Below, one piece after another: positions 15,477 to 35,143 of a stretch of DNA of 64,000 bases (position 1 is its first letter; the number at the start of each line of letters is the position of its first letter). This DNA is from Stieleria maiorica (GTDB taxonomy: Bacteria; Planctomycetota; Planctomycetia; Pirellulales; Pirellulaceae), in the NCBI RefSeq assembly GCF_008035925.1, contig NZ_CP036264.1, positions 2,412,443 to 2,476,442 on the forward strand, written 5' to 3'. Under the pieces are notes generated by a model. That model was not told the DNA's origin. It saw only the letters and a program-made list of their open reading frames with translations, and searched no databases. A program made the translations under genes and the position numbers.

Positions 15477-15601
15477 CGGACGCTTGCCGGAGGAGGTGGG
15501 GATGGGAAACGGCAGGGATCGTATTCTACAACGACGGCAGCGTGTATGTTGTGGAGACCTGCCCTTCTTTGTCCCGCCCCACCTGCCGGAATGAACCTGC
15601 G

Positions 15602-17113
15602 ATGAACCGTCTGCTTCAATTGTTCACAGCGATCTTGCTGCTGGGTTTGCCCCTTGGTCCAACCGTGGCCGCCACGGAAGTAAACGGGCCGACGGAAGCG
15701 AAACGGCCGATGAACGTGCTGTTCCTCATTTCCGATGACCTCACGTACACCGCACTGTCGTGCTACGGAAACACGGTCTGCCAAACGCCCAATATCGACG
15801 CGTTGGCTGCCAGCGGAACGCGATTCACCCGGGCCTACTGCCAGGGAACCTACTGCGGACCCTCGCGGGCATCGTTCATGTCCGGGTTCTATCCCCACGC
15901 GACGGGCGTGCTGGGATACAAGAACCCGCGGGCACAAATCGGCGACCGGGCGACGTGGTCCCAGCACTTCAAGAACAACGGCTACTACGCCGCGCGGGTC
16001 AGCAAAATCTTTCACATGGGCGTTCCCGGCGGGATCGAGGACCACGGCCCGGGCCGCGATTACAACGGAGCCGACGACGAACTGTCCTGGACCGAACGTT
16101 TCAACAGCCCCGGCCCGGAATGGCGCGCTCCGGGTGATGGCGAGACACTGGAAGGCAATCCCGACGGCAAGAAACCCGTGGTCGGCGGCAACACCTTTGT
16201 CGTCGTGGAGGCCGATGGGGACGACATGGTTCATAGCGATGGCAAAACGGCAAAGAAGGCGTGTGAACTGATTCGTCAGCAACGCGACCGACCGTTTTGG
16301 TTGGGTGTCGGATTCGTGCGGCCACACGTCCCCTTCGTCGCGCCGAAGTCCTACTTTCCACCGTACAAGCCCTACAGCAAACACGCCCTGCCGCCCAAGA
16401 TCGAAGGCGACTGGGACGACATCCCCAAGGCCGGTATCAATTACAAAACCAGCCCAAACATGAAGATGGATCTGCGACGACAAAAGAAAGCCGTCGGAGG
16501 CTACTATGCGTCGGTCGCGTACATGGATGCCCAGGTCGGCAAGGTGCTCGATGCGCTGAAGGCATCCGGACAGGAAGACAACACGATCGTGATCTTCACC
16601 AGCGACCACGGGTACCATTTGGGCGAGCATGATTTCTGGGCCAAGGTTTCCTTGCGTGACGAATCGGCGGGGGTGCCGCTGATCATTCGGGTTCCCGGAA
16701 AGCAGCCGGCGGTCTGCCACAGTTTCGTCGAATTATTGGACCTGTATCCGACCGTCGCGACGCTCTGCGGATTGGACGTTCCGAAGCATGTGCAAGGCAA
16801 AGACATCTCGGCGATGTTGGACGACCCCAATCACCAAGTGCGCGAGTTCGCATTCAGCGTCGCGCCGATGCGGAAAGGATTCTTGATCCGCGAGGATCGA
16901 TTCGCTTTCATCCAATACGAAGAAGACGCATCGGCAGGGACGGAGTTGTTTGACACGCACGCCGATCCGCAGGGCTACGACAATCTGGCCGGCGATGATC
17001 GCTATCAGGAAGTGCTGGCACGCATGCAATCCACTTTGACCCGAAAACTGGCCGAGGTTCGCGACAATGATCTGTCGCTGCAAAGCAGCGACCGGGAATC
17101 GCCTAAAGGCTAG
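15602..17113 (+). CDS. sulfatase (iduronate-2-sulfatase-like), secreted
   Basis: The signal peptide MNRLLQLFTAILLLGLPLG is followed by LFLISDDL and the sulfatase signature C-G-P-S-R (CxPxR) in YCGPSRASFMSG. FTSDHGYHLGEH is also present. The ORF track begins 60 nt upstream; I took Met21 as the start. Confidence 0.85.
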   Translation: MNRLLQLFTAILLLGLPLGPTVAATEVNGPTEAKRPMNVLFLISDDLTYTALSCYGNTVCQTPNIDALAASGTRFTRAYCQGTYCGPSRASFMSGFYPHATGVLGYKNPRAQIGDRATWSQHFKNNGYYAARVSKIFHMGVPGGIEDHGPGRDYNGADDELSWTERFNSPGPEWRAPGDGETLEGNPDGKKPVVGGNTFVVVEADGDDMVHSDGKTAKKACELIRQQRDRPFWLGVGFVRPHVPFVAPKSYFPPYKPYSKHALPPKIEGDWDDIPKAGINYKTSPNMKMDLRRQKKAVGGYYASVAYMDAQVGKVLDALKASGQEDNTIVIFTSDHGYHLGEHDFWAKVSLRDESAGVPLIIRVPGKQPAVCHSFVELLDLYPTVATLCGLDVPKHVQGKDISAMLDDPNHQVREFAFSVAPMRKGFLIREDRFAFIQYEEDASAGTELFDTHADPQGYDNLAGDDRYQEVLARMQSTLTRKLAEVRDNDLSLQSSDRESPKG

Positions 17114-18943: not shown

Positions 18944-20578
18944 TCAACGCGTGGAATCTGGCAACGCAAACGTCGACTCGTACCGTGGCATCTGCTTTGC
19001 CTCCCACGAGGTTTCGGATTGCTCGTTGATGAACCAGCGAGGGTGCGTGTGCGTCGTGCTCCATCGTTTCGCTTCGTCAACCATGGAGCGGACGATTTCG
19101 GGGTGTTGTGAACTCAGGTCATGAACTTCACCGAGGTCGGTCTGTATGTCGAACAGTTGCCATGACGCTTTTGGGCCTCGCTTAAGCGCTTTCCATTGAT
19201 CCCGACGGATGCCCACATTGTGAAATCCGTTCCAATGACGCAACGCAAAAATCGATTCGCCCGCACGCGGCGTTTCGCCTGACGAAACAGCGTCCCAAAT
19301 GTCTTTGCCGTGAAATTCTTGTTCGGCCGGCAGCGTGGCTCCGGCAAGTCGCGCGAACGTGGGATAAAAATCGAGTGCCGAGACGGGGTGTTCAAAACGC
19401 GTTGCCGCCGCAAGCTGATCCGGCCAGTGAAAGAACATCGGGACGCGGAATCCGCCTTCGCAAACGCTGCCTTTCCCTTGTTGCAGCGGCGCGTTGTTGG
19501 CCCCGGCGCCGATCTTTCCGCCGTTGTCACTAAGAAACACGATCAGCGTGTTGTCGAGTGCACCGTTGGCCTTGAGCGCGTCGACCAATCGCCCGACGCC
19601 TCGATCAACCGCATACACCATCGCGGCGTAGGTTCTTCGTTTCTCGTCTTCGATGTGTTCAAACTTGGCGAGGTCGTCTTCCTTGGCCTCCAGCGGCGTG
19701 TGCGGGGCGTTGTAGGCGAGATACAAGAAGAACGGTTGTTGTTTCTGCTCGGCTTCGTTCACAAATCGAACCGCTTCGCGCGACAACGCATCGGTCATGT
19801 ACTCGCTCTCTTCAACGACCGTCCCATTGTGTTCCAGCGGCGTAATGTATTCGTTAAACCGCGTTTTTCCGGCGTTTTTCTGACGCTGGTAGATCGGCCC
19901 GTAACGCTCGGGAAAATACATGTGCCCGCCACCAAGGAAGCCGTAGAAATCGTCGAATCCACGCTCGTTGGGATGGAACTGGGGCGCGAATCCAAGATGC
20001 CATTTCCCGATCGCGCCGGTGTAGTAGCCGGCGCGTTGAAGCACCGCTGCGATCAATGTTTCCTCCACCGCTATGCCTTCGTCGTCGTACCGATCAAACT
20101 CGGTGCCGGATGGCGGAAGATTGAAGGGCGCGCCGAACACGTGGGGATACCGACCGGACAGCATCCCCATCCGGCTTGGGCCGCAAAACGGATGCGTCAC
20201 ATAGGCGGACGAAAAGATCGTGCCGTTTTTTGCCAACCGGTCGAGCGCCGGGGTGGTGATGTCTTGGGAACCGTTGAATCCAACATCGGCGTATCCCAGA
20301 TCGTCACAGAGGATCAGCACAATATTCGGACGCGGGGCCGCGGACTGGGCACCGCTAACGCACGTAGTGACACCGAGCAAAACAAGCAGGAAAAGCAATG
20401 AATCAGACGCGATTTTTTTGACCAACGGGAACTTCTCCACTCGAAGGAATTTCAAATTCAATCGCCCCGAATCGGGCGTAGAAACGGACCTCGCCGCACG
20501 GTCACCGACCGAGTCTCGCGGTCGTTTCCAAGCGAGGGCTTTCTCAGGTACCGCCAAGTCATGGCTTGTGGGCTGCAT
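18944..20578 (-). CDS. arylsulfatase family protein, secreted
   Basis: IVLILCDDLGYADVGFNG plus the sulfatase signature C-G-P-S-R in HPFCGPSRMGMLSGRYPH, and LSDNGG. The signal peptide SLLFLLVLLGVTTCVSGAQS lies ~60 aa into the ORF, so the true (possibly non-ATG) start is probably downstream of 20578. Confidence 0.8.
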   Translation of the reverse strand: MQPTSHDLAVPEKALAWKRPRDSVGDRAARSVSTPDSGRLNLKFLRVEKFPLVKKIASDSLLFLLVLLGVTTCVSGAQSAAPRPNIVLILCDDLGYADVGFNGSQDITTPALDRLAKNGTIFSSAYVTHPFCGPSRMGMLSGRYPHVFGAPFNLPPSGTEFDRYDDEGIAVEETLIAAVLQRAGYYTGAIGKWHLGFAPQFHPNERGFDDFYGFLGGGHMYFPERYGPIYQRQKNAGKTRFNEYITPLEHNGTVVEESEYMTDALSREAVRFVNEAEQKQQPFFLYLAYNAPHTPLEAKEDDLAKFEHIEDEKRRTYAAMVYAVDRGVGRLVDALKANGALDNTLIVFLSDNGGKIGAGANNAPLQQGKGSVCEGGFRVPMFFHWPDQLAAATRFEHPVSALDFYPTFARLAGATLPAEQEFHGKDIWDAVSSGETPRAGESIFALRHWNGFHNVGIRRDQWKALKRGPKASWQLFDIQTDLGEVHDLSSQHPEIVRSMVDEAKRWSTTHTHPRWFINEQSETSWEAKQMPRYESTFALPDSTR

Positions 20579-22280: not shown

Positions 22281-23942
22281 TCAGATGGTTCGCGACAGCG
22301 GCGGGTTCCACTGGATTTTCCAGCCGGCATCGATCATCGATGCGCCGTCGCCGTTCGGTGCGGGCAACGCGTCATCTTCCAGCTCGGGCCGGTTCAGTTC
22401 CACCGAATCGTCCTCGTCGACGGCGGGTTCGGCAGGCGTCGTCTCGATGCTTTTCAAACCCGTTTTCGGCGTGCCATCGAAGGTTTCGGCCGGCTTCAGA
22501 CTCATCTGAGAATTGGACGCCGGCTGGGCGATGGTCGACGACGAGTCGCTGGATTGGGCGAACGAGGAGAACCCGTGGGTGATCGCGCTGCCGAAGGGGT
22601 CGTAGTAGGTCATCGGCACGCGCATCACGGTTTGACGCGGCACGACGACGGTTTCGGTGTAGGGTTCGTAGACCGTGCGTGTGACCGGACGGCGGACCGT
22701 CTGAACGACCTCTTCGTACTCTGTGTACTGGACGGTCTGGGGAACCTTCTTGGTTTCGTAACGGATCTTGCTGGTTTGCACCGGCACCTTGCGAACTTGC
22801 TCTTCGGTGATCCAGCGCTGTTGGGTCACGGGCACCTTGCGGGTCATGGTTTTGGTGACCGGGCGTTGAACGACGTAGGGCACCTTGCGGACCATCGTCG
22901 TCGGCACCATCCGCGTTGACTGGACCGGGACGTTTTGGGTGACCACTTCGGTCTGCATCCGGGTCGTTTGGACGGGGACTTTTTGGGTGACGACCTCGCT
23001 TTGCATCCGTTGGACTTGGACGGGCACCTGGACCTGCTCGGTCACCGGCATGTACGACGTCTGGGCGACCTGTTGTTGGACGTAATTGGGGCGGTAGACG
23101 TACTGGGTCTGCGCCGTGGGCGGCGTGACGACCGGTTTGGCGACGTAACCGCCGCGGACACGGGCAAAGATCCCCAGCGGTCCCGGGGTCGCGTAAAGGC
23201 CGCGTTGGTACTGCAGGCCGTAGCCGACCGATCCCGGAGTGATCGTGGTTTGGGGGACGTAGCCGCCGGCGTCCACGGTCTGGTTGACCATCGTGGTTTG
23301 CGGGCGCAGCGTCGTGTACTGCTGCGTCTGCATTTGCGTCTCGACGACCGGTCGCTGGACGGTGTACTGCTGTTCGTAATAGCTGGTTTCGGTCACGGGC
23401 CGCTGGACCGTGTATTGCTGTTGGTACATCTGCGTTTCGGTCACCGGCCGATACGTCGTGTACTGTTCCTCGCGCTCGGAGGTTTCGGTGACGTACTCGG
23501 TTTCGGTGTACGTTTCGTCGCGATAGCTGGTCTCGGTGATCGGTTTCCAAACCGTGAATCGCTCTTCTTTGTAAGACGTTTCGACGGTGTTGACCGGGAC
23601 GGTGACTTCACGCATTTCGGTGCGGGTGCGGACAACCGGGCGGAACGATTTGACTTGCTCCTCGACCATTTCGGTCCGGTACACCGGACGCATCCGCTGC
23701 ACCGTCTGCTGTTCGTAACAGGTCGTCGGCTCCAGCCGGTAGGCCTGGGGATAGCAAAAATCCTGAGCGCTGGCCCCGCCGCCCGATAGACAAGCCCATC
23801 CGCCCAGAAAACAGGCAGCGGAACCGGTGAGAACCAGACTGCGAGGGAATCGTTTGCAGGAGAACTGGCGAAACATCGCGAGGAGACCTTCTGGAGCAAA
23901 TAAACGTGTAAACGCGATCGACCGAGCGCATCGGGGGCCCAT
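22281..23942 (-). CDS. secreted repetitive protein (Thr/Gln/Val/Tyr-rich tandem repeats), hypothetical
   Basis: A signal peptide is followed by many ~16-19-aa repeats (YTVQRPVTETSY..., VPVQ..RMQ.EVVTQ.). These are mirrored by ~48-bp nucleotide tandem repeats at 22921-23045. Confidence 0.5.
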   Translation of the reverse strand: MGPRCARSIAFTRLFAPEGLLAMFRQFSCKRFPRSLVLTGSAACFLGGWACLSGGGASAQDFCYPQAYRLEPTTCYEQQTVQRMRPVYRTEMVEEQVKSFRPVVRTRTEMREVTVPVNTVETSYKEERFTVWKPITETSYRDETYTETEYVTETSEREEQYTTYRPVTETQMYQQQYTVQRPVTETSYYEQQYTVQRPVVETQMQTQQYTTLRPQTTMVNQTVDAGGYVPQTTITPGSVGYGLQYQRGLYATPGPLGIFARVRGGYVAKPVVTPPTAQTQYVYRPNYVQQQVAQTSYMPVTEQVQVPVQVQRMQSEVVTQKVPVQTTRMQTEVVTQNVPVQSTRMVPTTMVRKVPYVVQRPVTKTMTRKVPVTQQRWITEEQVRKVPVQTSKIRYETKKVPQTVQYTEYEEVVQTVRRPVTRTVYEPYTETVVVPRQTVMRVPMTYYDPFGSAITHGFSSFAQSSDSSSTIAQPASNSQMSLKPAETFDGTPKTGLKSIETTPAEPAVDEDDSVELNRPELEDDALPAPNGDGASMIDAGWKIQWNPPLSRTI

Positions 23943-24255: not shown

Positions 24256-25320
24256 CTATTTGCCGATGTTGGTCATCCATTCGGACTTGGGCAATCGGGC
24301 CAACCAGGCCAGCCACGCGTAGTTGGAGGCCGAGATCATCGCTTCGCTGTGGTTCAGGCTGAGCGCGGCCAATCCGTAGGCGGCTTTCTTGCGACCGCCG
24401 TGCATGATCTTTTCCTTGCCGTTGGCAGGCCCGACCAAGTGTGCCATTTCGTGCACCATCGCATCGGTCATGAAGATGACATCTTTGCCCTTCATGTTTT
24501 TGACGCAGACCTTGACCCGTTTGTAGTCTTCGACCTCCATGTGAAACCCACCCGGAATGGCTTCGGCGAAAATGGCGTGCCCTTCATCATTGGTGCAACT
24601 GCCTCCGGTTCGCACGAACGGTCGGACGGCACGTCGAGCGCGGGGATAGCGATTGAAGATCTTGATGATCTTGTTGATCGCGAGCACCTGTTGCTTTTCG
24701 GTCGACAAACTCTTGATTTTGAAGCAGCGGTCGACCAGATCGTAGCTCGGTTTCTCAGCCTTCGTGCCTTCCAGGTATTTCAACGCGTTGAGCAGTTCGA
24801 CGACGGCGCCGAGCGCCCAGCGTTCGGCGCGATTGACCGCGGCGTTGACGCGCGTCATGACGTCCTTTTCCGAATCCGTCATCGGCACGAACGAACTCGT
24901 CCCCGGTCCGGCAGAGCCTCCGCCGCCTCCCGCCCCGCCGGCCGATCCGCCTCCGGACGCCCCCGCAGCCGGTTGCAATTCGTTCAACTTGGCCAGTGTG
25001 CGATGCCCGGGATCGACACGAGCATCGGCGCGGGCGGCCCCGAAGTGATGTTTCTGGAAGATGTAAATCGCCCGCTCGGTCTTGGGGCCGTTTAGCCCGT
25101 CGACGACCAGAATCGGGTTGGGACGCCCCTTGCCGACCGGGACTTGATTGAGGGCCTGCTGGATCGATTTGACATCGGCACGCAGGTTCTTCCCTTGCCG
25201 CCCGACCGAACCCGATATGTGAACTTGGGACGACGTCCCACCGGGTTCGTCCGAACCACTCGTCGGAGAGCAGCGACCGAACAGCCCATAACCCATGCAC
25301 TCTTGGCGGTGCGCAGACAT
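24256..25320 (-). CDS. putative zinc metallopeptidase (HExxH) with N-terminal peptidoglycan-binding domain
   Basis: DVKSIQQALNQVPV...VDGLNGPKTERAIYIFQ is PG_binding_1-like. A Gly/Ala/Ser linker follows. The C-terminal FMTDAMVHEMAHLVG contains HExxH. The Asp in ...TDAMVHEMAH suggests an aspzincin/M35-like or similar zincin fold. Confidence 0.55.
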   Translation of the reverse strand: MSAHRQECMGYGLFGRCSPTSGSDEPGGTSSQVHISGSVGRQGKNLRADVKSIQQALNQVPVGKGRPNPILVVDGLNGPKTERAIYIFQKHHFGAARADARVDPGHRTLAKLNELQPAAGASGGGSAGGAGGGGGSAGPGTSSFVPMTDSEKDVMTRVNAAVNRAERWALGAVVELLNALKYLEGTKAEKPSYDLVDRCFKIKSLSTEKQQVLAINKIIKIFNRYPRARRAVRPFVRTGGSCTNDEGHAIFAEAIPGGFHMEVEDYKRVKVCVKNMKGKDVIFMTDAMVHEMAHLVGPANGKEKIMHGGRKKAAYGLAALSLNHSEAMISASNYAWLAWLARLPKSEWMTNIGK

Positions 25321-25480: not shown

Positions 25481-28400
25481 TCAGGCCGGTTCGTCGCCCG
25501 AAGCGGCGTCGAAGGTGGATTCGATCTCTCGGTAGTTCGCCCGCATCGCGTCAAGTTGCTCTTTTAACCGTTCTAAATCGCGGCCGTTGTCGATCGATTC
25601 GCTCAGGATCGGCCGCAACCATTCTTGCATCAGGTGGAATTGTCCTTTGATCAAATCCGCCAACACGCGAGGGACCTTGTGTTGCACAAAGACCTTTTGA
25701 TCGGGCGGTTGGGCGTTTGCTTGATGTTCGCTGATGCGTTGCAGCTGCTCCCCGGTTGTTTTGAGCGTCGCGGCGAGTTGATCGGCCGAAGCGGTCAGGC
25801 TGTGACGCAGTGAATCGATTCTCGCATCCATGCGTTCTTCGCTGCCGTCCCCGCTGGCCGCGATCGCTCGGGAGATGACCTGGCGAATGGATTCCAATCC
25901 GTCCCGCATCGACGCCAATTGACGCATCAATTGTCCCGCCTGGTCCTCGCTGTCCAGACCCTGCATGCGGATGCTTTCGACGAACGAATACTTGATGCTA
26001 TCCCAGCGTTCTTTCTCTTCCGGTGTCAGGATGCCCATCAGTTCCTTGAACTTCAGCACGTTCGCTTCGTTGTCGGTCGTCAACGTCTGGGCGTCTTGTT
26101 CGTAGCTGCTGACGATCAGCGATTGCAGTTCCTTGGCGTTCATCACGCTGGCGACCTTTTCCGCCATGCGATTCATGTTCCGATAGCTGCCCTGCAATTT
26201 GAACGGCGGCTCGGTGCGATAGGCGTCGGCCTGGGCGGCGCTGCGGATGTAGGCCCGATTGACCCGCAACACGACATCGCGGACTTGAAGCAGTTTCCGC
26301 ATCACTTCGTACATGTCGCGGACCTGGTCGGGCGAGAAGTTGCCTTGCAGTTCGATGCCTTCCATCGTGTCGCGTTCGGCGGCGCGGATGATGGCGCGGG
26401 CATCGTCGGGTGAAGCGGAGGAAAGCGGGGCCAGCGTGGTGTTGCTGGTCAAGCAATTTTCCAGGTAGCTCATCTCGAACGCGTCGGCAGAATCCCCGAT
26501 GATCTCGCCCAGGTTGTAGACGTCGGCGCGGTTGGACAACATGTCCGGAATCTGAAACCGCTCGCCGCTTTCGGTGTAGGGATTGCCGGCCATCACGACC
26601 GACACCCTGCGGCCCCGCAGGTCATAGGTTCTTGTTTTGCCGTTGCTGACGCCCTCGATCTTTCGTGTCGCGTCACACAACGAGATGAACTTTTGCAGGA
26701 ACTCGGGATGGGTGTGTTGGATGTCATCCAAGTACAACATCACGTTGTCGCCCATCTCGAGCGCCAGATTCAATCGTTCGACTTCTTCCTTGGCCGCGGC
26801 GTTGGGTGCTTCGGCGGGGTCGAGGGACGTGACCTGATGCCCGATCGCCGGGCCGTTGATTTTCATGAACACCAACCCGAGTCGATTGGCGATGTATTCC
26901 ATCAATGTCGTTTTGCCGTAACCGGGCGGTGAAATTAGCAGCAGCAACCCCATTCGGTCGGTGCGTTTGTTTTCGCCGGCGGCGCCCATTTGTTTGGCCA
27001 GGTTGTCGCCGATCAACGGCAGGTAGACTTCGTCCAGCAAACGGTTGCGGACAAAGCTGGTCAACACGCGTGGCTTGAATTCGTCCAGCCGCATGTCGTC
27101 GCGGGCGGCGTCGACGAGCCTGGATTTGGTTTCGTTCAGTTTTCGATACCGCGGTACGATGTCCAACATGTAACGCCCGACGCGACGAAGCAGTTCGTGA
27201 TAGTGGACGACCATCTTGCCGCCTTGGATCCGATCGTGGTTGCCCACCAATCCGCCCAGCGAGGTCGCGATTTCGACCTCGGCGATTCGCTGCCGTGAGA
27301 GGTCGCCGGACAAAATGATCCACGCCAGTTCGTCCAGGTAGTAGTGAGCCGGATCGACTTGGTTGTCGCCGTCGTGATTGGCCAAGAACGCTTTCGCCCA
27401 GTTGCGTGCCAAGACAAAGGATCGAACCGGATCGCTTTCATTGCTTTTCATCGCGGCTTCGAGCAGCGTTTGACGATCGACTTCGGGCACCGAGTCTGTG
27501 AACGCTTTGTACAATCCGGCGGCACGGGCGCTGCACACGACCTCGGGTTCGTTGTGCACCAATTGGTCGAACAGATAGTTGGCGATTCCCTCGGAGGTGA
27601 CGTTGTGATCGAACAGCGGCCCCCACAGTGGATGGTCTTGCTGGGCCAATTCGGCCAGCCGCTGACGAAATTCCACCGCCGGTTCGGCCTGCGGGTAGGC
27701 TTTGGCCAATTTCGCAAAACCGCCGATCCAATCGGTCATCGCGTCGCGTGTTTTCGAATCCAGCAGTTTCTCAAACCACAGCAAGCCGGCCGCACGAACG
27801 CTGGGGGGATGCCCCAGCAGGTCGATCCGGGCGTCGATCTGCAGCAGCGCAGCGAGGATCATCGCGGCGTCGTGGTCGTGCACCCCTTTGGCGTAACCCT
27901 GGTCGAATCGCCCACCGATCTTCGATTGAATCCAGCCGGCGTCGACGGCTTCGGCGGTCAACGCCGGGCCGTGTGAGTTTCGGTTGTTGAACAGGTCCAC
28001 GGCCAGGAATTCCGCGCGGTAGACGTCGCGGTTTTCGCTGATCAACTCTTGGTTCCACAGATCCTTGGCGTCCGACAGCGCCGGATCCTCCAGCGGTGCA
28101 AAAAACTGGGTGCCGGTCAGGTGCAGGCACATTGCGTCGTTGCGCAGTACCGTGGTCAGATCAAGCGGCTGGGTGTTGACGGCGAACTTCTGTTTTCCCA
28201 AACGGATGATGTGGCCGCCGTCTTCGTACAGGTCTTGCCGATCCTTCAGCTGACGCACCGAATCCTCGCGGATGGTTTTCATCCGGCTTTGCAGATCGCC
28301 GACCCGCACGGCGTCATCGAGTTCCTGCAGTTGGTCGATGATGTCGCGGACCTTTTCGACCATCAAATCGCCGGCAAAGTAGGCCGCGATGTCGTCGGCC

Positions 28401-30733
28401 GACTCCATCGAACGCACGCGGTTGTCGATGCCTTTGAGGATCCGATCGGCCGCCGAGGCCAGCGACTCGGCGCGGCGGTTGCGTTTCTCGACCAGTTGCA
28501 CCTTGCGTGATTCGAACGCCGCGTAAACCTCTTCGCGGCGGACGGCCAGTTGTTCGATAAAGTCATCGAACTCGGCGAACTTGCCTTCCAGCTCCTCCAG
28601 CTGCACCATCACCTTGGTCAGGTATTCGTCGCAGCGATCGGGGCTGTCGCAGACGTCCAGATAGCCCGACGTGGTTTGTTCCAACAATTTCAATTGGGAC
28701 GCAAACTCGGCGCGGCCTTCCACACCGACCAACTCGGACGTGCGAGCTTTGAGCGCGCTGCGAACACGGTTGACCGAGGCAAACACGTCGCCGATCGCGT
28801 CGATGATTTCGGTGCGTTTGGTCGCGTCGTCGATGCGCAGGTTGCTGACCGTTTCGGTCAACAATTCCAACTGCGATGCGGCGGCGTCGATTTCTTCGCC
28901 CAGCGACTTCGATTCGGCTACCGTCGCGACTTCCGCCACGCGATCCTTGGCCGCGGCGATGCGATTGATGTAGGGATCCAGGGCGCCGGGGGTGAGCAGA
29001 AAGTCGACACAGCGACGGCTCAACCGTTCGCTGCGCTCGGCCGTGGCGGTTTCGAGCTGGTCGACAAGTTCCAAATCGACGTAGCGGAGTTCCTTCAGCC
29101 CCAAAGCGTGCCCGCGCTGAGTTCGCAGTTCGGCCAGCGAGGTCACGAAATCATCGATCGATTCGAAACGGCTGCGTTCGATCTTCTTGATCAGCGCCTC
29201 GATCGCCGCGGAGACCTCTTTGGTTCGCGAATCCGTCTCGCGCCGGGCCCGGACGACCTTGTCGAATTCTTCGACCGCCGCATTGGACGCTTCGCGAATC
29301 TTTTGCAGCGGTTCGGCCAGCTTTTCCGTTTCCGGCTTGTCGATCCAAAAGTAGCTGTCCAGGACGTCGGACGATTTCTTGTTCAGATCGACGTACAGGC
29401 CCTCGTAGCTGTCGTCTTTGTCGATCAGCTGCAGCAGTTCGCTGCACTCGGCCATCCCCCGGACGATCTCCTTGTTGCCGATTTTGAACAGCAGCGAATC
29501 GGTTTGGTTTTCGGGGACGAAATTGGGGCCGGTGAAGGGCGTCTGCCAGATCTGCACGGCGTGGTGTTTTTGGGCTTCTTCTTGGCCGCGGAAACAGACC
29601 ATCTCGCCGCGTTCGAAGAAGGTTTGTCCGTGACAGATCAGCGGCGTGTCGACGGTTTGTTTGATCAGGTTGTAGCGCAGTTGGACGTAGGTCCCGGAGG
29701 TCGGCGCGTAGAACAGGTACAGGTAGTCTTCACCGTTGGAGGCGGCGACGGTGCGTTGATAACGCATGTCGCTGAGTCCGGTTTCGAACCGTTTGAATTC
29801 GCCGGTTTGCAGGTAGTAGCCGCCGGGGAAGATCAGCCCTTGGTCGCCCGGCAGCATGACGCAGGCCTCGGCGATTTCGTCCAATCGGATCGCCTGCTGG
29901 ATCTTGCTGTTGAAAACCAGGTACCGGAAGCGGTCTTCCTGGTAAGGTTTCATTTTCAGCAACACCAGGTTGCCCAAGACCGCGTAGTAGATTTCCGCGT
30001 CATCGAGCGTTTGGTCGGGGTTATCGACCGGTTCGGCATAGATGCCTTCGCCGCTGCTGGTGTTGTTTTCGACCTTGATGGTCAGGTCACCGCCGACGGT
30101 TTCCACAAACACGATGTCTTCGATCGAGATGTGGGGGTGTTCACCGTAGTGATGTTGATCGCGGGTCGTGCGCGTCCAGCGAAACTCGTGCTGGGCGGGC
30201 TCTTTGACTTCGTGTTCGCTGCGGTTGTCGATATACTCGATCGCATCGGACGTGACCCGCCATTTAAACGACTTGATGTCGCGGTTCGTCTTGCCGACCT
30301 GAAACACCATGTGCAGGATCGGGCCGGAGCGATAGAACCGTGAAAACCGCGTGTCTTTGTAGAACCGATACAGCTCGCTGAAATCGTTGTGGAAACGCGA
30401 ATCACCGATCAGATCCAACGTCGCCTCGTGGAACTGGTTGTCTTCGAACCGGTAGGCCGAAAAAACATCCGAGAGTTCGATTTCCGTCTTCAATCCGAAC
30501 TGGACGTTGTATCCGAACAGGAACTGATCGCCGACGGAAACCAGGTCGCGCGGGACGCAGTTGTGTTCGGTGGTGACACGTTCGGTCGAGATCAACTTGG
30601 TCTCGATATTGCCAAAGACTTCCGCCCGCGACTCGTTCAGTTTGGCAAGCCGGGAACGCAGGTCGTCGGCGGCATCACGCAAACGATTGCGGAGAACTTC
30701 GTAGGTGCCGGCGGCGAGTTGGGAGTCGGGCAT
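25481..30733 (-). CDS. 1750-aa coiled-coil protein with one AAA+ ATPase domain (AAA_5/MoxR-dynein-like) near residues ~1255-1420
   Basis: Walker A is LLLISPPGYGKTTLMEYIANRLG (coding ~26905-26928). Walker B is NVMLYLDDIQ (~26717-26746). The sensor/Arg-finger-like region is SVVMAGNPYTESGERFQIPDMLSNRADVYNLGE. About 1200 aa of predicted helical/coiled-coil sequence lie N-terminal and ~330 aa C-terminal. There is no TM segment. Confidence 0.75.
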   Translation of the reverse strand: MPDSQLAAGTYEVLRNRLRDAADDLRSRLAKLNESRAEVFGNIETKLISTERVTTEHNCVPRDLVSVGDQFLFGYNVQFGLKTEIELSDVFSAYRFEDNQFHEATLDLIGDSRFHNDFSELYRFYKDTRFSRFYRSGPILHMVFQVGKTNRDIKSFKWRVTSDAIEYIDNRSEHEVKEPAQHEFRWTRTTRDQHHYGEHPHISIEDIVFVETVGGDLTIKVENNTSSGEGIYAEPVDNPDQTLDDAEIYYAVLGNLVLLKMKPYQEDRFRYLVFNSKIQQAIRLDEIAEACVMLPGDQGLIFPGGYYLQTGEFKRFETGLSDMRYQRTVAASNGEDYLYLFYAPTSGTYVQLRYNLIKQTVDTPLICHGQTFFERGEMVCFRGQEEAQKHHAVQIWQTPFTGPNFVPENQTDSLLFKIGNKEIVRGMAECSELLQLIDKDDSYEGLYVDLNKKSSDVLDSYFWIDKPETEKLAEPLQKIREASNAAVEEFDKVVRARRETDSRTKEVSAAIEALIKKIERSRFESIDDFVTSLAELRTQRGHALGLKELRYVDLELVDQLETATAERSERLSRRCVDFLLTPGALDPYINRIAAAKDRVAEVATVAESKSLGEEIDAAASQLELLTETVSNLRIDDATKRTEIIDAIGDVFASVNRVRSALKARTSELVGVEGRAEFASQLKLLEQTTSGYLDVCDSPDRCDEYLTKVMVQLEELEGKFAEFDDFIEQLAVRREEVYAAFESRKVQLVEKRNRRAESLASAADRILKGIDNRVRSMESADDIAAYFAGDLMVEKVRDIIDQLQELDDAVRVGDLQSRMKTIREDSVRQLKDRQDLYEDGGHIIRLGKQKFAVNTQPLDLTTVLRNDAMCLHLTGTQFFAPLEDPALSDAKDLWNQELISENRDVYRAEFLAVDLFNNRNSHGPALTAEAVDAGWIQSKIGGRFDQGYAKGVHDHDAAMILAALLQIDARIDLLGHPPSVRAAGLLWFEKLLDSKTRDAMTDWIGGFAKLAKAYPQAEPAVEFRQRLAELAQQDHPLWGPLFDHNVTSEGIANYLFDQLVHNEPEVVCSARAAGLYKAFTDSVPEVDRQTLLEAAMKSNESDPVRSFVLARNWAKAFLANHDGDNQVDPAHYYLDELAWIILSGDLSRQRIAEVEIATSLGGLVGNHDRIQGGKMVVHYHELLRRVGRYMLDIVPRYRKLNETKSRLVDAARDDMRLDEFKPRVLTSFVRNRLLDEVYLPLIGDNLAKQMGAAGENKRTDRMGLLLLISPPGYGKTTLMEYIANRLGLVFMKINGPAIGHQVTSLDPAEAPNAAAKEEVERLNLALEMGDNVMLYLDDIQHTHPEFLQKFISLCDATRKIEGVSNGKTRTYDLRGRRVSVVMAGNPYTESGERFQIPDMLSNRADVYNLGEIIGDSADAFEMSYLENCLTSNTTLAPLSSASPDDARAIIRAAERDTMEGIELQGNFSPDQVRDMYEVMRKLLQVRDVVLRVNRAYIRSAAQADAYRTEPPFKLQGSYRNMNRMAEKVASVMNAKELQSLIVSSYEQDAQTLTTDNEANVLKFKELMGILTPEEKERWDSIKYSFVESIRMQGLDSEDQAGQLMRQLASMRDGLESIRQVISRAIAASGDGSEERMDARIDSLRHSLTASADQLAATLKTTGEQLQRISEHQANAQPPDQKVFVQHKVPRVLADLIKGQFHLMQEWLRPILSESIDNGRDLERLKEQLDAMRANYREIESTFDAASGDEPA

Positions 30734-30926
30734 GGATTGGCTCCCGGAGGGTGATGGGGGAAGCAGGCGGCGAATTCAGCTGACGGAATCAAGGGGGCAT
30801 CGGGGCTGAGTCCCGGGCCGCCGGTGGCGGCACAGGAAGGCTTCGCCGGACTCGTTTCACAGAGCGGAGGGCAAAGCGAGAGCACGGCCCCTCGCGGTCG
30901 ATCGCGAGGGGCCGCGACGCCGCCGA

Positions 30927-33077
30927 TTACGCTAAACCGCCTTTCAGTTTTTTACCATTGTCGGAACTGCCGCCCAGCAGTCGGCTGGTTTTTTGGTCGG
31001 CGATGTTGGCCGATCCGGCCATCCCGAGCAGACTGGTCAATTGCGATCGCATGTCGTCGGTGTCGGCCATGCCCATCATCTTGGCGATCAACGCCGCGAT
31101 GGACAGGTCTTTGACGCCGTCGGTGTCCAAGTTGAACTGTCCGATCATTTTCGTCAGCTGATCACGAAAGTACTCCGCGTTGCCATCGAAGAACGTGTCC
31201 TTGATGTCGGTCGCGACGCGGCTGTTGTAGACGAATCGGTCGATCGCTTTTCCGCCCTTGACGGCCGAAGTGATCTGGTCGAAGAACTCGCCGTCGCCGC
31301 CGACGATGTCGATGCGAGCGGCCTTGAGTGCTTCGCCGACCACACCGGCTTGGCTTTCGGCGATGCCACGCTGGGCATCGATCGCCGCGATCTCGACTTC
31401 CTTTTCCTTGTTCAGCTTCAGCTTGAACTCTTCGTGTTCCTTTCCGACGCTGTCGAAGATCTTCATCGCTTCGGCCTTTTCGGTGATACCGGTCGCCTCG
31501 CTGCGATACTTTTCCAGTTCGACGCTGGCTTCGGCCATGCCTTGTTTTTCGACCGCGGCCGCTTTGGCTTCGATGCCCTTGGCTTCGGCAACCGCTTTCT
31601 TTTCCAGGACGGTCGCTTGGGCCGACCCTTCTTTTTCCAGGCTGACCGCTTTGGCTTCTTGCACGCGTGCTTCGGCCAATCCGGCCGCAGCGGCCTTGGC
31701 GGCGTCGGCTTCGGCCAGCATCTTGGCGGCCGCCGTTTCTTTCTCCGCCGCATCGCGTTTGGCTTCCGCCTCGATGCGGATCTTTTCGGCCAACAGCTCG
31801 CTGGATTCCTTTTCCGCTTGGGCCAACTTGGTTTGGCGAATCAGCTCTTCTTCGGCCTTCATTTCCGCCGCAGTGATTTGAACCTTTTTTGCTCGCTCGG
31901 CCTTGGCGATTTCTTCGGTGTCCTTGATGCGTTCTTGCTCTTCGACGACCGCTCGTTCGACGGCGACGCGTTCGCGAATCACCTCTTGGATGTTTCGCTT
32001 TTCGGTTTCGATCGCCTTTTCCTTTTCGACTTCGGCGACGCCGACCACCCGCAGGCGTTCGGTGGCTTCCAGGTCACGGTCTCGATTGACGCGTTCGAGT
32101 TCGACGGCGTCGGTTTTTTCCTTGTTCCGCTGGGCGACCAGGATTTGACGGTCTCGGTTCTCCGAGGCGATGCCGAGTTCTTCTTCGGTCGCGATCCGGG
32201 CCCGTTCGGCTTCCAGTCGCTGTTCCTCTTCGACCTTTCGGGCCGAGGCCTGTTCGCGGGCGGTGATTTCGGCGATTTCGCGTTTCTGTTTCTCAACCGC
32301 TTCGACGCGTTGGCGCTCCAACGCGAGGATGGTCTCTTCGGCTTCGACGTCCTGCTTCTTGAGCGTCTTTTCCTTGTCGCGGGTGAACTGGTTTTCCTTG
32401 ACCTTTTCGGCACTGGTCAGTTCGGTGATCTTCTTGATCCCCTCGGCGTCCAGGATGTTGTTGGGCGAGAGCAGTTCCAGGGGAGTTTGTTCCAGATAAT
32501 CGATCGCCGCGTCGTCGAGCCGGTATCCGTTCAAGTCGGTGCCGATGACCTTCAGGATTTCGTCCTTGAACTTGTCGCGTTCGTCGTACAGTTCGACAAA
32601 GTCAAATTGCTTGCCGACCGTCTTTAATGCTTCGGAGAATTTGGCGTCGAACAGTTCACGAAGTGTTTCAAGTTCCGAACAGCGACGGGCGCCGATCGAT
32701 GCGGCGACCTCCTTCATCTCTTCTTCGCTGCTGTCGACGCGGATGAAGAAGGCGACTTTGATGTCCGCGCGGATGTTGTCTTTACAGATCAAACCTTCGC
32801 TGCCCTGGCGGCTGATTTCAAAACTTTTCAGCGACAGGTCCATCAGTTCGTAACGATGGATCACCGGGACGATCAACATGCCGTTGCCGGTGACGACATC
32901 CATCTTGCCCATCCCGGTTTTGACGATCGCTTGGTCCGGGCCGACCACCATGTAACACTTCTTGATGGTCGCGACGATGCCTAGAAGCACCACAAAGAGA
33001 ATCCCGACGCCGATCAGGACACTCGTCAGCAGGCCTTCGGCCAGCAGCGGGGTCGCAAGAGTACTCCAAGTCATCAC
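30927..33077 (-). CDS. flotillin-like SPFH/Band-7 family protein (YqiK/FloT-type)
   Basis: An N-terminal TM anchor is followed by an SPFH domain (MVVGPDQAIVKTGMGK...VPVIHRYELMDLSLKSFEI...) and then a long Glu/Ala/Lys/Arg-rich flotillin-type coiled coil (EA repeats). The C-terminal is Gly-rich. It overlaps the upstream NfeD-like gene by 4 nt (ATGA). Confidence 0.85.
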   Translation of the reverse strand: MMTWSTLATPLLAEGLLTSVLIGVGILFVVLLGIVATIKKCYMVVGPDQAIVKTGMGKMDVVTGNGMLIVPVIHRYELMDLSLKSFEISRQGSEGLICKDNIRADIKVAFFIRVDSSEEEMKEVAASIGARRCSELETLRELFDAKFSEALKTVGKQFDFVELYDERDKFKDEILKVIGTDLNGYRLDDAAIDYLEQTPLELLSPNNILDAEGIKKITELTSAEKVKENQFTRDKEKTLKKQDVEAEETILALERQRVEAVEKQKREIAEITAREQASARKVEEEQRLEAERARIATEEELGIASENRDRQILVAQRNKEKTDAVELERVNRDRDLEATERLRVVGVAEVEKEKAIETEKRNIQEVIRERVAVERAVVEEQERIKDTEEIAKAERAKKVQITAAEMKAEEELIRQTKLAQAEKESSELLAEKIRIEAEAKRDAAEKETAAAKMLAEADAAKAAAAGLAEARVQEAKAVSLEKEGSAQATVLEKKAVAEAKGIEAKAAAVEKQGMAEASVELEKYRSEATGITEKAEAMKIFDSVGKEHEEFKLKLNKEKEVEIAAIDAQRGIAESQAGVVGEALKAARIDIVGGDGEFFDQITSAVKGGKAIDRFVYNSRVATDIKDTFFDGNAEYFRDQLTKMIGQFNLDTDGVKDLSIAALIAKMMGMADTDDMRSQLTSLLGMAGSANIADQKTSRLLGGSSDNGKKLKGGLA

Positions 33078-33820
33078 GATTGGTTCTCCGGTTCAAGTTC
33101 AGTAACGGTGTAGATCCGTTTGGTTGGGTCAAACTCTGTAATCCGCACTTCCGTCCCTTTCGGAATCACTGCCCCCGTTGTGCGGACATTTAACAAAAGC
33201 GGAGCGGCATTCGTCCGAAACTTAGCTTGCCCAAAGCTGGGGGATGCCTCGATCGACGAAATTTCGCATGTCGCCCCGAGCAACCGGTCTTTGTCGTAAC
33301 CGGGCTCGGGCGAAAACTTTCCGACCACCGGCTGGGTGACGAACTTGGTCGCCACCACGGCGATGACAAAGTTGCGCGCCGCCAGCAGGACCGAAGGCAG
33401 CCAGATCGGTTGATACCGTGAGGCGTCGAATCCGTGCCAGAGGCCGTAGGAGACCATCCAGAACAGGACGGTGAACGCCCCGAACCAGATCACCAACGGC
33501 ACGCGTCCGAAGTTGGACCAGCGGACCGTCGTGGCCGCAAACCCGCCCAGGAAATCGAGGCCGACCGGATGTCCGACTTCGGCATCGCCGCCGGCGACAT
33601 CGAAATCGACCGCGTCCAAATCCGGCGTGCCGAGGTCCACGTCCATGTCCAAGTCGGCGTCCAGATCGATGTCAGGCGCCCCCAAATCCAATTCGATCAA
33701 CCCGACCAAGGCCACCAGGGTGTACATCACCATCAGGCAAACCAGAATCGACGCCGGCCAGACGGGACCGACGAACATTCGATTGGCGAGATCTGTCAGC
33801 ACTTCTTCCACAGCGGTCAT
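33074..33820 (-). CDS. NfeD/YqiJ-like membrane protein (flotillin-partner, C-terminal OB-fold-like)
   Basis: Several TM helices are followed by a C-terminal soluble beta-rich segment (GATCEISSIEASPSFGQAKFRTNAAPLLLNVRTTGAVIPKGTEVRITEFDPTKRIYTV), typical of the NfeD short homologs found immediately upstream of flotillin (yqiJ-yqiK, yuaF-floT arrangement). An acidic DLD-rich loop is present. Confidence 0.6.
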   Translation of the reverse strand: MTAVEEVLTDLANRMFVGPVWPASILVCLMVMYTLVALVGLIELDLGAPDIDLDADLDMDVDLGTPDLDAVDFDVAGGDAEVGHPVGLDFLGGFAATTVRWSNFGRVPLVIWFGAFTVLFWMVSYGLWHGFDASRYQPIWLPSVLLAARNFVIAVVATKFVTQPVVGKFSPEPGYDKDRLLGATCEISSIEASPSFGQAKFRTNAAPLLLNVRTTGAVIPKGTEVRITEFDPTKRIYTVTELEPENQS

Positions 33821-34021: not shown

Positions 34022-35143
34022 CTAGCCGACCAGGCCCGAGCGGACGCGGAGCGTGTCCAGATCCAGCAACCCGACCAGGCGACCGCGATCGTCGGCGACG
34101 GCGAATTGCCGACAACCGTCCAACGGCCGCGTGACGACGGATTCCAGCGATTCCTCCGGGGACAGGATTGGCGCGTCGTGACGCGCCAGTTGGCCGACCG
34201 TGGTCGTCGGATCGGCGCCCTCGCGCAGCGCCGCCGATACATCTTCCAGGGCCAGGATGCCGACGACAAAATCGTCCAGACCGACGACGGGCACGGCGGT
34301 CGTCGGGCACGATCGCAGCGTCGGCAGCAATTCCCCGAGTTCGGTTTCCATCGTCAGGAAAGGCGGCTGGTGCAGCATCGCATCGCGGATCGTCAGATCC
34401 CGTAGCGGTTCGATCGCATCGACCTGTCGCGCTTCGGACAGCCCCGCGTAACAGATAAACACGGCGATCAATCCGGCCGTGACCACGCCGTTGTACAACG
34501 CCAACGAACCCATCACGACCGCGCACACCACGCCGATGTAGGACGCGATCCGCGTCGCCCGGCGGTATTCAATTCCCATCGCCAAAATGCTGCGCAGCAC
34601 CCGCCCTCCGTCCATCGGAAACGCGGGGATCATGTTGAACAGAATCAGTGCCGTGTTGACCAACATCATGCTCATCAAATAGCCCAGCGGCGTCGGCGAA
34701 TTGAGCGTTTCGATGTAACGATCGATGGCGTCCGGTTGCGTCACTAATTCGCCCAGCGATGGCAACCCGAACCCGGAAAAGACGAACAAGACGGCTGCCA
34801 AGAACAACACGATGACGACATTGACCGCCGGGCCGGCGACCGCCACCAAGAATTCTTGCCAGGGGATCCGCGGAATCTTCATCAAACGAGCGACACCGCC
34901 GATGGGAAACAGCGTGATGTCCATCGTTTCAATGCCGAACCGCCGGGCCATCAAGGCGTGGCCGTATTCATGCAGCGTCACGCACAGAAACATGCCCAAC
35001 AAAAGCGTGACGCCGAAGACCGTCCCGACGACGCCGTCCTGGTATCCTGCATAGGCCACGTAGGCGACCAAAAGGGCGAACGACCAGTGGACGTAGACGC
35101 CGATTCGAAAGTAAGTTCCCAGTTTAAGTCGTCGTCGCCACAC
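34022..35143 (-). CDS. site-2 protease family (M50) zinc metallopeptidase with C-terminal CBS domain pair
   Basis: HEYGHALMAR is the HExxH motif within TM helices. A second motif region is FPMDGGRV. The C-terminal ~120 aa is CBS-like. Confidence 0.8.
   Translation of the reverse strand: MWRRRLKLGTYFRIGVYVHWSFALLVAYVAYAGYQDGVVGTVFGVTLLLGMFLCVTLHEYGHALMARRFGIETMDITLFPIGGVARLMKIPRIPWQEFLVAVAGPAVNVVIVLFLAAVLFVFSGFGLPSLGELVTQPDAIDRYIETLNSPTPLGYLMSMMLVNTALILFNMIPAFPMDGGRVLRSILAMGIEYRRATRIASYIGVVCAVVMGSLALYNGVVTAGLIAVFICYAGLSEARQVDAIEPLRDLTIRDAMLHQPPFLTMETELGELLPTLRSCPTTAVPVVGLDDFVVGILALEDVSAALREGADPTTTVGQLARHDAPILSPEESLESVVTRPLDGCRQFAVADDRGRLVGLLDLDTLRVRSGLVG

Follow-up and report, generated by a model that had tools for sequence, protein, structure and literature searches.

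A single open reading frame (ORF) on the minus strand of a 64,000-nucleotide stretch of the Stieleria maiorica (Planctomycetota) chromosome, referred to below as the window, encodes an AAA+ ATPase of 1750 amino acids (25481..30733) that we take, with a probability of roughly 0.55, to act as an ATP-driven remodeller of a flotillin scaffold, and of PspA in those loci where PspA is present. The protein is a typical member of a widespread and catalogued AAA+ family (the DUF3686/DUF7902/AAA+ ATPase or BacE/PA3728 family) that lacks a biochemical description, and the copy in the window is an ordinary one, the standard chromosomal version of a known cassette. It is 100% identical to the S. maiorica protein P0001, which is named "ATPase involved in DNA repair", and 42% identical, over 1649 aligned positions, to a homologue from Pseudomonas aeruginosa (P0123). 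The initial annotation of this DNA had proposed a giant ORF containing one AAA+ ATPase and this is real; its start codon is credible because residues 9-17 are conserved across the family and a GGGAG sequence lies just 5' of the gene. What is new here is a corrected domain map, a set of invariant residues, a counted linkage to flotillin and a candidate docking region on the flotillin itself.

The argument for a role at a flotillin scaffold begins with gene order. Among the 55 genome loci, drawn from several phyla, with enough upstream DNA to be informative, a flotillin gene lies directly upstream of the ATPase gene and on the same strand in 50 and nearby in two more, so that the connection to flotillin and NfeD that had been suggested beforehand is strong by gene context (50-52 of 55 loci). 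A YqiJ-like gene was detectable in 43 of the same loci, with PspA in nine, CesT/Tir in six and PLD in three. The trio of flotillin, YqiJ-like protein and ATPase also occurs in annotated loci from Hymenobacter, Pseudomonas fluorescens pQBR103, Streptomyces and Deinococcus (plasmids); in two of these four a PspA/IM30 gene closely precedes the trio, and the Hymenobacter locus also includes a CesT/Tir-like gene. The ATPase-flotillin linkage has already been published from comparative genomics by Ravi et al. in 2024 (mSystems, PMC11237479), but that paper gives a one-line, sequence-based architecture, whereas the full domain order and the invariant residues come from the present analysis. None of the homology searches placed the protein in a well-characterised family unrelated to flotillin.

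In the window both partners expected from the initial annotation are found directly upstream of the ATPase gene and on the same strand. The nearer is a long flotillin of 716 amino acids (30927..33077, minus strand) in which a single N-terminal membrane segment and an SPFH domain are followed by a long, charged, helical region and, at the C-terminus, by 254 amino acids specific to the family. It has 43% identity with the flotillin encoded at the PA3729 position and 52% with the one from Hymenobacter. The full-length protein gives no Pfam match even at E 10, but its first 234 residues alone match Band_7 with E 4e-14, and the failure is apparently due to the Ala/Glu/Lys-rich charged helical region triggering the HMMER bias filter. 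Automated annotation could miss such flotillins, and the Hymenobacter and Deinococcus records do label the gene 'hypothetical protein'. Similarity to E. coli YqiK (31% identity) is restricted to residues 15-462. Residues 463-716 (30927-31688), in contrast, are conserved in the ATPase-linked flotillins of five phyla, with E values from 1e-20 to 1e-61, and are undetectable in YqiK, whose yqiJ-yqiK locus has no ATPase gene. An extension that is kept with the ATPase and is undetected in YqiK hints at an ATPase-specific part of the flotillin, and on the basis of this distribution the C-terminal 254 amino acids are a candidate docking module for the ATPase.

The third member of the unit is a YqiJ/DUF1449 (short NfeD-like) protein of 248 amino acids with three predicted transmembrane segments (33074..33820, minus strand). 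Its profile matches are weak (YqiJ_N, E 0.004; NfeD, E 0.024), as are the matches, collinear in both cases, to E. coli YqiJ and to the protein encoded at the PA3730 position; the sequence contains three hydrophobic segments. Its stop codon overlaps the flotillin start (GTGATGA; TCGTGATGACT; 33072-33078), for which either GTG or ATG may serve, and this overlap suggests translational coupling of the YqiJ-like protein and the flotillin. Between flotillin and ATPase there is a 193-nt spacer (30734-30926). It contains a perfect GC-rich hairpin of 14 bp (30883..30916, minus strand; RNA fold -40.3 kcal/mol, z -4.2) that has no U tract and follows closely on the stop codon of the flotillin gene. The spacer has a median length of approximately 144 nt across 52 loci, and comparable stem-loops are found in many related loci. 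In 49 related loci the spacer folded more stably than random segments of the same length from the same locus (39% beat 12 of 12 controls; sign test, p 0.009), although this is a weak test as the controls were mostly coding DNA. The hairpin could be an attenuator or a processing site that sets a high ratio of flotillin to ATPase.

The ATPase module itself has the features expected of a working motor. The Walker A motif PPGYGKTT occupies residues 1269-1276 (26906-26929, minus strand, as for all positions within the ATPase gene) and the Walker B motif MLYLDDIQ residues 1332-1339 (26717-26740), both having been recognised in the initial annotation at coordinates that were off by a few bases at most. 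The sensor-1 asparagine is N1384 (26582-26584), and R1518 (26180-26182) is a candidate sensor-2 arginine. Conservation was assessed in an alignment of 71 full-length representatives of clusters at 50% identity together with the window protein, 72 sequences in all. GYGKT, the Walker B DD (always in the form DDIQH) and N1384 are each found in 71 of them, and R1402 (26528-26530) and R1518 in all 72. The motifs GNPY, NRAD and QGSYRNM are likewise present in the window protein and invariant in the 71 representatives. R1402 lies within the stretch RFQIPDMLSNRADV (residues 1392-1405, 26519-26560), which had been described as resembling an arginine finger; the stretch is there and includes this invariant arginine, but the arginine of its "RFQ", R1392, is variable (R in 23, K in 17 and A in 13 of the 72). 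Mean identity to the window protein is 69% in the AAA+ core, 42% in the propeller, 34% in the helical rod and 22% in the middle helical domain (884-1142), the least conserved domain, while the C-terminal tail shows 9% identity and 51% gaps across the family representatives. This pattern fits an active ATPase in which the motor is under the strongest constraint. The earlier suggestion that the enzyme is active is therefore probably right, the catalytic residues showing no variation or almost none.

Pfam, AlphaFold2 and the searches with separate segments all indicate one AAA+ module per chain. A midasin- or dynein-like chain is ruled out because the module is single, as had been argued at the outset. 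The resemblance to SMC and dynamin-like proteins that had also been proposed does not hold, as Pfam and NCBIfam reveal neither ABC-type heads nor a GTPase domain. The SMC/Rad50/RecN type was rejected on the grounds that SMC_N, Rad50 and AAA_23 gave no matches, that the AAA+ module is single, contiguous and close to the C-terminus, and that the helices form short bundles; a dynamin-like protein was rejected as there was no dynamin or GTPase match and the sole P-loop belongs to the AAA+ module. No NCBIfam model scored above its cut-off for the ATPase. The partial Pfam AAA, AAA_5 and RuvB_N matches lie at residues 1264-1388, PF00004 covering just 67 of 131 positions (E 1.6e-7). A Foldseek search with the module returned NorQ and CbbQ, both of the MoxR class, and RuvB, with E about 1e-6.

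The remainder of the chain was modelled with AlphaFold2 in two overlapping pieces (residues 1-1200 and 1100-1750), using input alignments of 82 sequences from planctomycete, gammaproteobacterial and Streptomyces relatives. This structure prediction, which the initial annotation had proposed as a check, gave a layout of propeller, bundles and AAA+ module. In the first piece (pLDDT 83.3) there is a helix at residues 10-40, followed by approximately 28 beta strands in 46-397, long helices of 20-58 residues each that are confined to 414-833, a small unit of strands (842-880), a globular part made of helices (884-1142) and further strands (1148-1177) that run into a long helix. In the second (pLDDT 81.5) an AAA+ core of Rossmann-like fold, at about 1231-1430 and with a beta-hairpin ahead of strand 4, is followed by a helical lid and extension to about 1594 and by three to four long, low-confidence helices that run to the end. 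Two of these regions are covered by Pfam families: DUF3686 (PF12458) matches residues 24-462 over the whole of its profile (1-448 of 448, E 2.5e-193) and DUF7902 matches residues 584-666 (E 1.3e-26). When the segments 400-840, 836-1235, 1425-1600 and 1595-1750 were searched separately against Pfam, they yielded DUF7902 and otherwise only sub-threshold noise of the coiled-coil type.

The order that these models show is a predicted N-terminal helix, a propeller-like domain, a rod of helical bundles, a beta/alpha region, one AAA+ module with its lid, and a variable tail. The N-terminal helix (residues 10-40, 30614..30706) is heptad-like and its residues Y11, E12, L14 and R17 are invariant in alignment A1. 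The beta-propeller-like domain (46-397, 29543..30598), for which Foldseek returned fold matches to propellers, forms the core of DUF3686. The long-helix region (414-833, 28235..29494), with DUF7902 (28736-28984) inside it, resembles antiparallel 3-4-helix bundles and spectrin-like repeats in fold searches rather than a two-stranded coiled-coil arm. No Pfam family matched the middle region (842-1214, 27092..28210), which in the model comprises a small beta unit (842-880), the helical globular domain (884-1142), strands (1148-1177) and a helix (1178-1214). The AAA+ core (1231-1430, 26444..27043), supported by the Pfam matches, AlphaFold2, Foldseek and conservation, is succeeded by the lid and a conserved helical extension with the invariant motif QGSYRNM (1431-1594, 25952..26443), and by a variable helical tail (1595-1750, 25484..25951) that is absent or unalignable in many lineages, the matches from Bacteroidota and Verrucomicrobiota stopping near residue 1620-1650. 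Two elements of the initial description have to be revised. The 1200 amino acids of coiled coil are contradicted by the DUF3686 match, by the predicted strands and by a heptad scan, a crude and uncalibrated in-house score, in which about 290 residues were coiled-coil-like (12-49, 603-669, 742-838, 1629-1675 and 1711-1748). The 330-residue tail is in reality composite: the variable tail is preceded by the conserved lid and extension, which holds the invariant R1518. The absence of transmembrane helices, however, was borne out, the highest mean Kyte-Doolittle value over 19 residues being 1.47 against a threshold of 1.6.

A mechanism can be outlined in which the soluble ATPase, the product of the third gene of a conserved cassette in which genes for a YqiJ-like membrane protein (short NfeD) and for a long flotillin come first, would be expected to form a ring. 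On the cytoplasmic side of the membrane the flotillin would build an SPFH cage or cap, and the YqiJ-like protein would be its partner in the membrane. The ATPase has no membrane anchor of its own; its propeller and rod would bring it to the scaffold, the probable docking point being the C-terminal extension of the ATPase-linked flotillins. Hydrolysis of ATP in the ring would then remodel the scaffold, together with PspA/IM30 polymers where these are encoded, the remodelling taking the form of assembly, disassembly or the extraction of subunits or clients. The physiological setting is likely to be envelope or membrane stress. An oligomeric scaffold on the membrane is matched with an AAA+ ring of its own in several systems, namely HflK/C with FtsH, prohibitin with the m-AAA protease, and ESCRT-III/PspA with Vps4, and the Vps4/ESCRT-III and FtsH/HflK-HflC pairs may be regarded as functional analogies, and no more than that, to the ATPase and its flotillin. 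In keeping with this, PspA and SPFH genes co-occur in loci of the ATPase family. The window ATPase differs from these systems in having no protease domain, membrane anchor or MIT domain. It differs from Vps4 not only in giving no MIT match but also in lying outside the classical AAA clade, its structural neighbours being MoxR and RuvB. Reviews indicate that bacteria have no known Vps4-like ATPase for PspA (PMC7619361), which makes the DUF3686 ATPase family a natural candidate.

The best structural match is to the MoxR class (NorQ, CbbQ and RavA), with a TM-score to the target of approximately 0.55 for NorQ, but RuvB scores equally. MoxR-like features include the beta-hairpin before strand 4, the partial AAA_5 match and a motif, NPxxxxGxxxxIPDxLxNR, that on our reading resembles the MoxR pattern. 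Unlike MoxR proteins, the window ATPase carries approximately 1230 residues of N-terminal domains and has DDIQH rather than DE in Walker B, and where MoxR proteins have the helix-2 insert, strand 2 is joined to helix 2 in the monomer model by a loop rather than by a hairpin. A gene for a VWA protein was not found in the window neighbourhood or in the annotated related loci.

The closest system that has been studied is in P. aeruginosa. The locus encoding P0123 reads, in order, DUF2170, PspA, a gene for 213 amino acids, a gene for 688 amino acids, the ATPase, PLD, YaeQ, RecJ and M4 peptidase, and because this order maps onto PA3732-PA3724 (in the PAO1 numbering we take lasB to be PA3724 and recJ to be PA3725) the protein can be identified, by gene order and not by locus tag, as PA3728 (PA14_16190, BacE). 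BacE, of the 'biofilm-associated cluster', has the same Pfam architecture as the window protein and the same upstream flotillin (PaFlo3/BacD) and short NfeD/YqiJ-like protein (BacC). The P. aeruginosa operon adds a CesT/Tir-like BacA, a PspA-like BacB, a PLD-like BacF and a proposed sigma-54 promoter, and these additional genes are not in the window. Reverse transcription PCR has demonstrated that bacABCDEF is one transcript, and when bacA was mutated BacB-F rose 6- to 13-fold (PMC10948618). PA3731 is responsive to osmotic shock (PMC2587700), and PA3728-PA3732 were up-regulated in all phage-infected samples (PMC12041424).

Other genes around the cassette in the window do not travel with it. 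Downstream of the ATPase gene is an ORF of 354 amino acids (24256-25320, minus strand) with a zinc protease-like HEMAH (HExxH) motif, a Gly/Ser-rich linker and a weak peptidoglycan-binding match (E 1.7e-4), which was not conserved beside the cassette in 80 related loci. At the other end, 200 nt upstream of the cassette and in the same orientation, is a gene of the M50 (site-2 protease) family that includes a CBS domain (34022-35143, minus strand); it, too, is not a conserved neighbour in other loci. Further away there is a second giant ORF (9645-15476, minus strand) encoding 1943 amino acids with FG-GAP repeats, DUF7133, HEAT repeats and a C-terminal 3-keto-disaccharide hydrolase domain, and the sulfatase genes at 15542-17113 and 18944-20578 and the YTV-repeat protein at 22281-23942 are typical of planctomycetes.

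An important consideration is how much weighs against remodelling of a flotillin scaffold as the function of the ATPase. Flotillin is missing upstream in three of the 55 loci. The search of the 64-kb window for PspA, CesT/Tir and PLD genes found none, so that any link to PspA would here have to be in trans, and as the other neighbours are not conserved the window unit is the three-gene form; abbreviated operons without PspA are widespread (PMC11237479), and the window locus matches them. The Walker B motif has DD and not DE, which may bear on the rate of hydrolysis, and the presence among the nearest AAA+ folds of RuvB, a DNA motor, means that the substrate could be a nucleic acid. The AlphaFold2 models are of monomers, and a contact with flotillin, the formation of a ring and any substrate are all conjectural. 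In P. aeruginosa, moreover, a paFlo3 flotillin mutant had only mild phenotypes (PMC13086221).

An alternative to a scaffold remodeller is a client-directed unfoldase or chaperone, with a flotillin cage confining or presenting damaged membrane or membrane-proximal proteins and the ring acting on these clients, as FtsH does inside HflK/C. This explanation predicts the same operon linkage; it suits the nearest AAA+ folds, which are MoxR-class, chaperone-like ATPases, and the nearly invariant loop after strand 2 (KINGPxxGH), as would be expected of a loop that contacts substrate; and SPFH cages holding AAA+ proteases and unfolded proteins are established (PMC13220708, PMC11222466). It is nevertheless rather unlikely, since neither a protease domain nor a protease gene is conserved in the cassette, the adjacent M50 gene not being a conserved neighbour, since the VWA partner typical of MoxR systems was not found, and since the flotillin-specific C-terminal extension implies that flotillin is at the least a docking partner. 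Scaffold remodelling is likewise preferred to a function in anti-phage defence or abortive infection, in which flotillin and the YqiJ-like protein would sense membrane damage and the ATPase, in some loci with a PLD nuclease or phospholipase, would be the effector. Such a function would account for the induction by phage of PA3728-PA3732, for copies of the gene on megaplasmids (13 records in all) and for the PLD-family gene 3' of the ATPase in P. aeruginosa and in three of the 55 loci, but phage infection typically induces the general Psp membrane-stress response as well. In PADLOC-DB 2.0 the ATPase had no significant match, the best being to LmuB (E 2.5e-4) with no stretch passing alone, and its neighbours (the flotillin, the YqiJ-like protein and the flanking genes) gave none; homologues were absent from 50,697 phage records, many genera of the Pirellulaceae carry the gene at 66-89% identity, and the GC content at the gene is that of the surrounding DNA. 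A defence function is thus improbable.

Two further explanations arise from the shape of the protein and from its name. The clathrin-like layout of a propeller joined to a long helical rod raises the idea of a structural coat or tether that shapes or bridges membranes, with the AAA+ module regulating only self-assembly. Planctomycetes have complex endomembranes, and the top Foldseek match of residues 1-1200 is indeed clathrin heavy chain (E 4.5e-6), with several clathrin terminal-domain matches next. The TM-scores are, however, approximately 0.1 and the match stems from generic propeller and helix content; moreover, the helical part consists of short antiparallel bundles and not of an alpha-solenoid, the family is widespread in phyla without endomembranes, and it is the AAA+ core, not the rod, that is most conserved. 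A coat must be considered a touch less probable even than a defence function. Least credible is the DNA repair ATPase of the database name, for which there are only the inherited names and a weak P-loop similarity to RuvB. The RuvB score is 23 bits against a cut-off of 282 and reflects the generic AAA+ fold alone; Pfam, NCBIfam and PDB sequence searches detected no domain of the SMC, Rad50 or RecN type and none of any other kind that binds DNA or acts as a nuclease; the genes conserved beside it encode membrane proteins and not repair functions; the RecJ gene near the P. aeruginosa copy lies outside the bacA-F transcript; and none of the literature searched links the family to repair.

The name is nonetheless pervasive, nearly all database copies being called 'DNA repair ATPase' or 'ATPase involved in DNA repair', and it is unsupported by sequence, fold or gene context. 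The family behind it is large, comprising 1392 clusters at 50% identity with E ≤ 1e-3, of which 446 have E ≤ 1e-30, and representatives align end to end over residues 1-1200. A genome search with two family-wide peptide patterns, one of them LQGSYRNM, located relatives in at least 594 species genomes, and 13 plasmid or chromosome records show 37-50% identity over at least 90% of the query. Members occur in the Planctomycetota, Verrucomicrobiota, Bacteroidota, Desulfobacterota, Kiritimatiellota, Omnitrophota, Actinomycetota, Deinococcota and Pseudomonadota. In one metagenomic representative, P0387, the ATPase appears fused to an N-terminal domain of the ClpP-like long-NfeD type. This representative was rejected as evidence of a fusion and is a probable gene-calling artefact, because the connector of about 280 residues (approximately 216-497) is Arg/Pro/Gly-rich, like an out-of-frame translation of GC-rich DNA; if it is such an artefact, then some loci have a long NfeD upstream in place of the short YqiJ type. 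Other over-long representatives of the family contained no extra domains. A search of the literature found no functional, biochemical or structural study of the DUF3686 ATPase family.

Flotillins and PspA/IM30 have been much studied, and the ATPase family is an obvious candidate for building, opening and recycling their assemblies. The domain map, the invariant residues and the C-terminal extension of the flotillin make such a role directly testable, with K1274, D1336/D1337, N1384, R1402 and R1518 as the residues for mutagenesis and the P. aeruginosa bacCDE genes as the most tractable system. It is possible, if on balance doubtful, that the family goes further and supplies bacterial flotillin assemblies (and PspA/ESCRT-III-like ones) with the dedicated motor that has so far been missing, a 1-MDa AAA+ ring whose propellers would dock on the cage, or which would sit within it, and which would use ATP to open, recycle or load it. 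If this were true, the ATPase would be the bacterial functional counterpart of Vps4 and would explain the turnover of flotillin microdomains.

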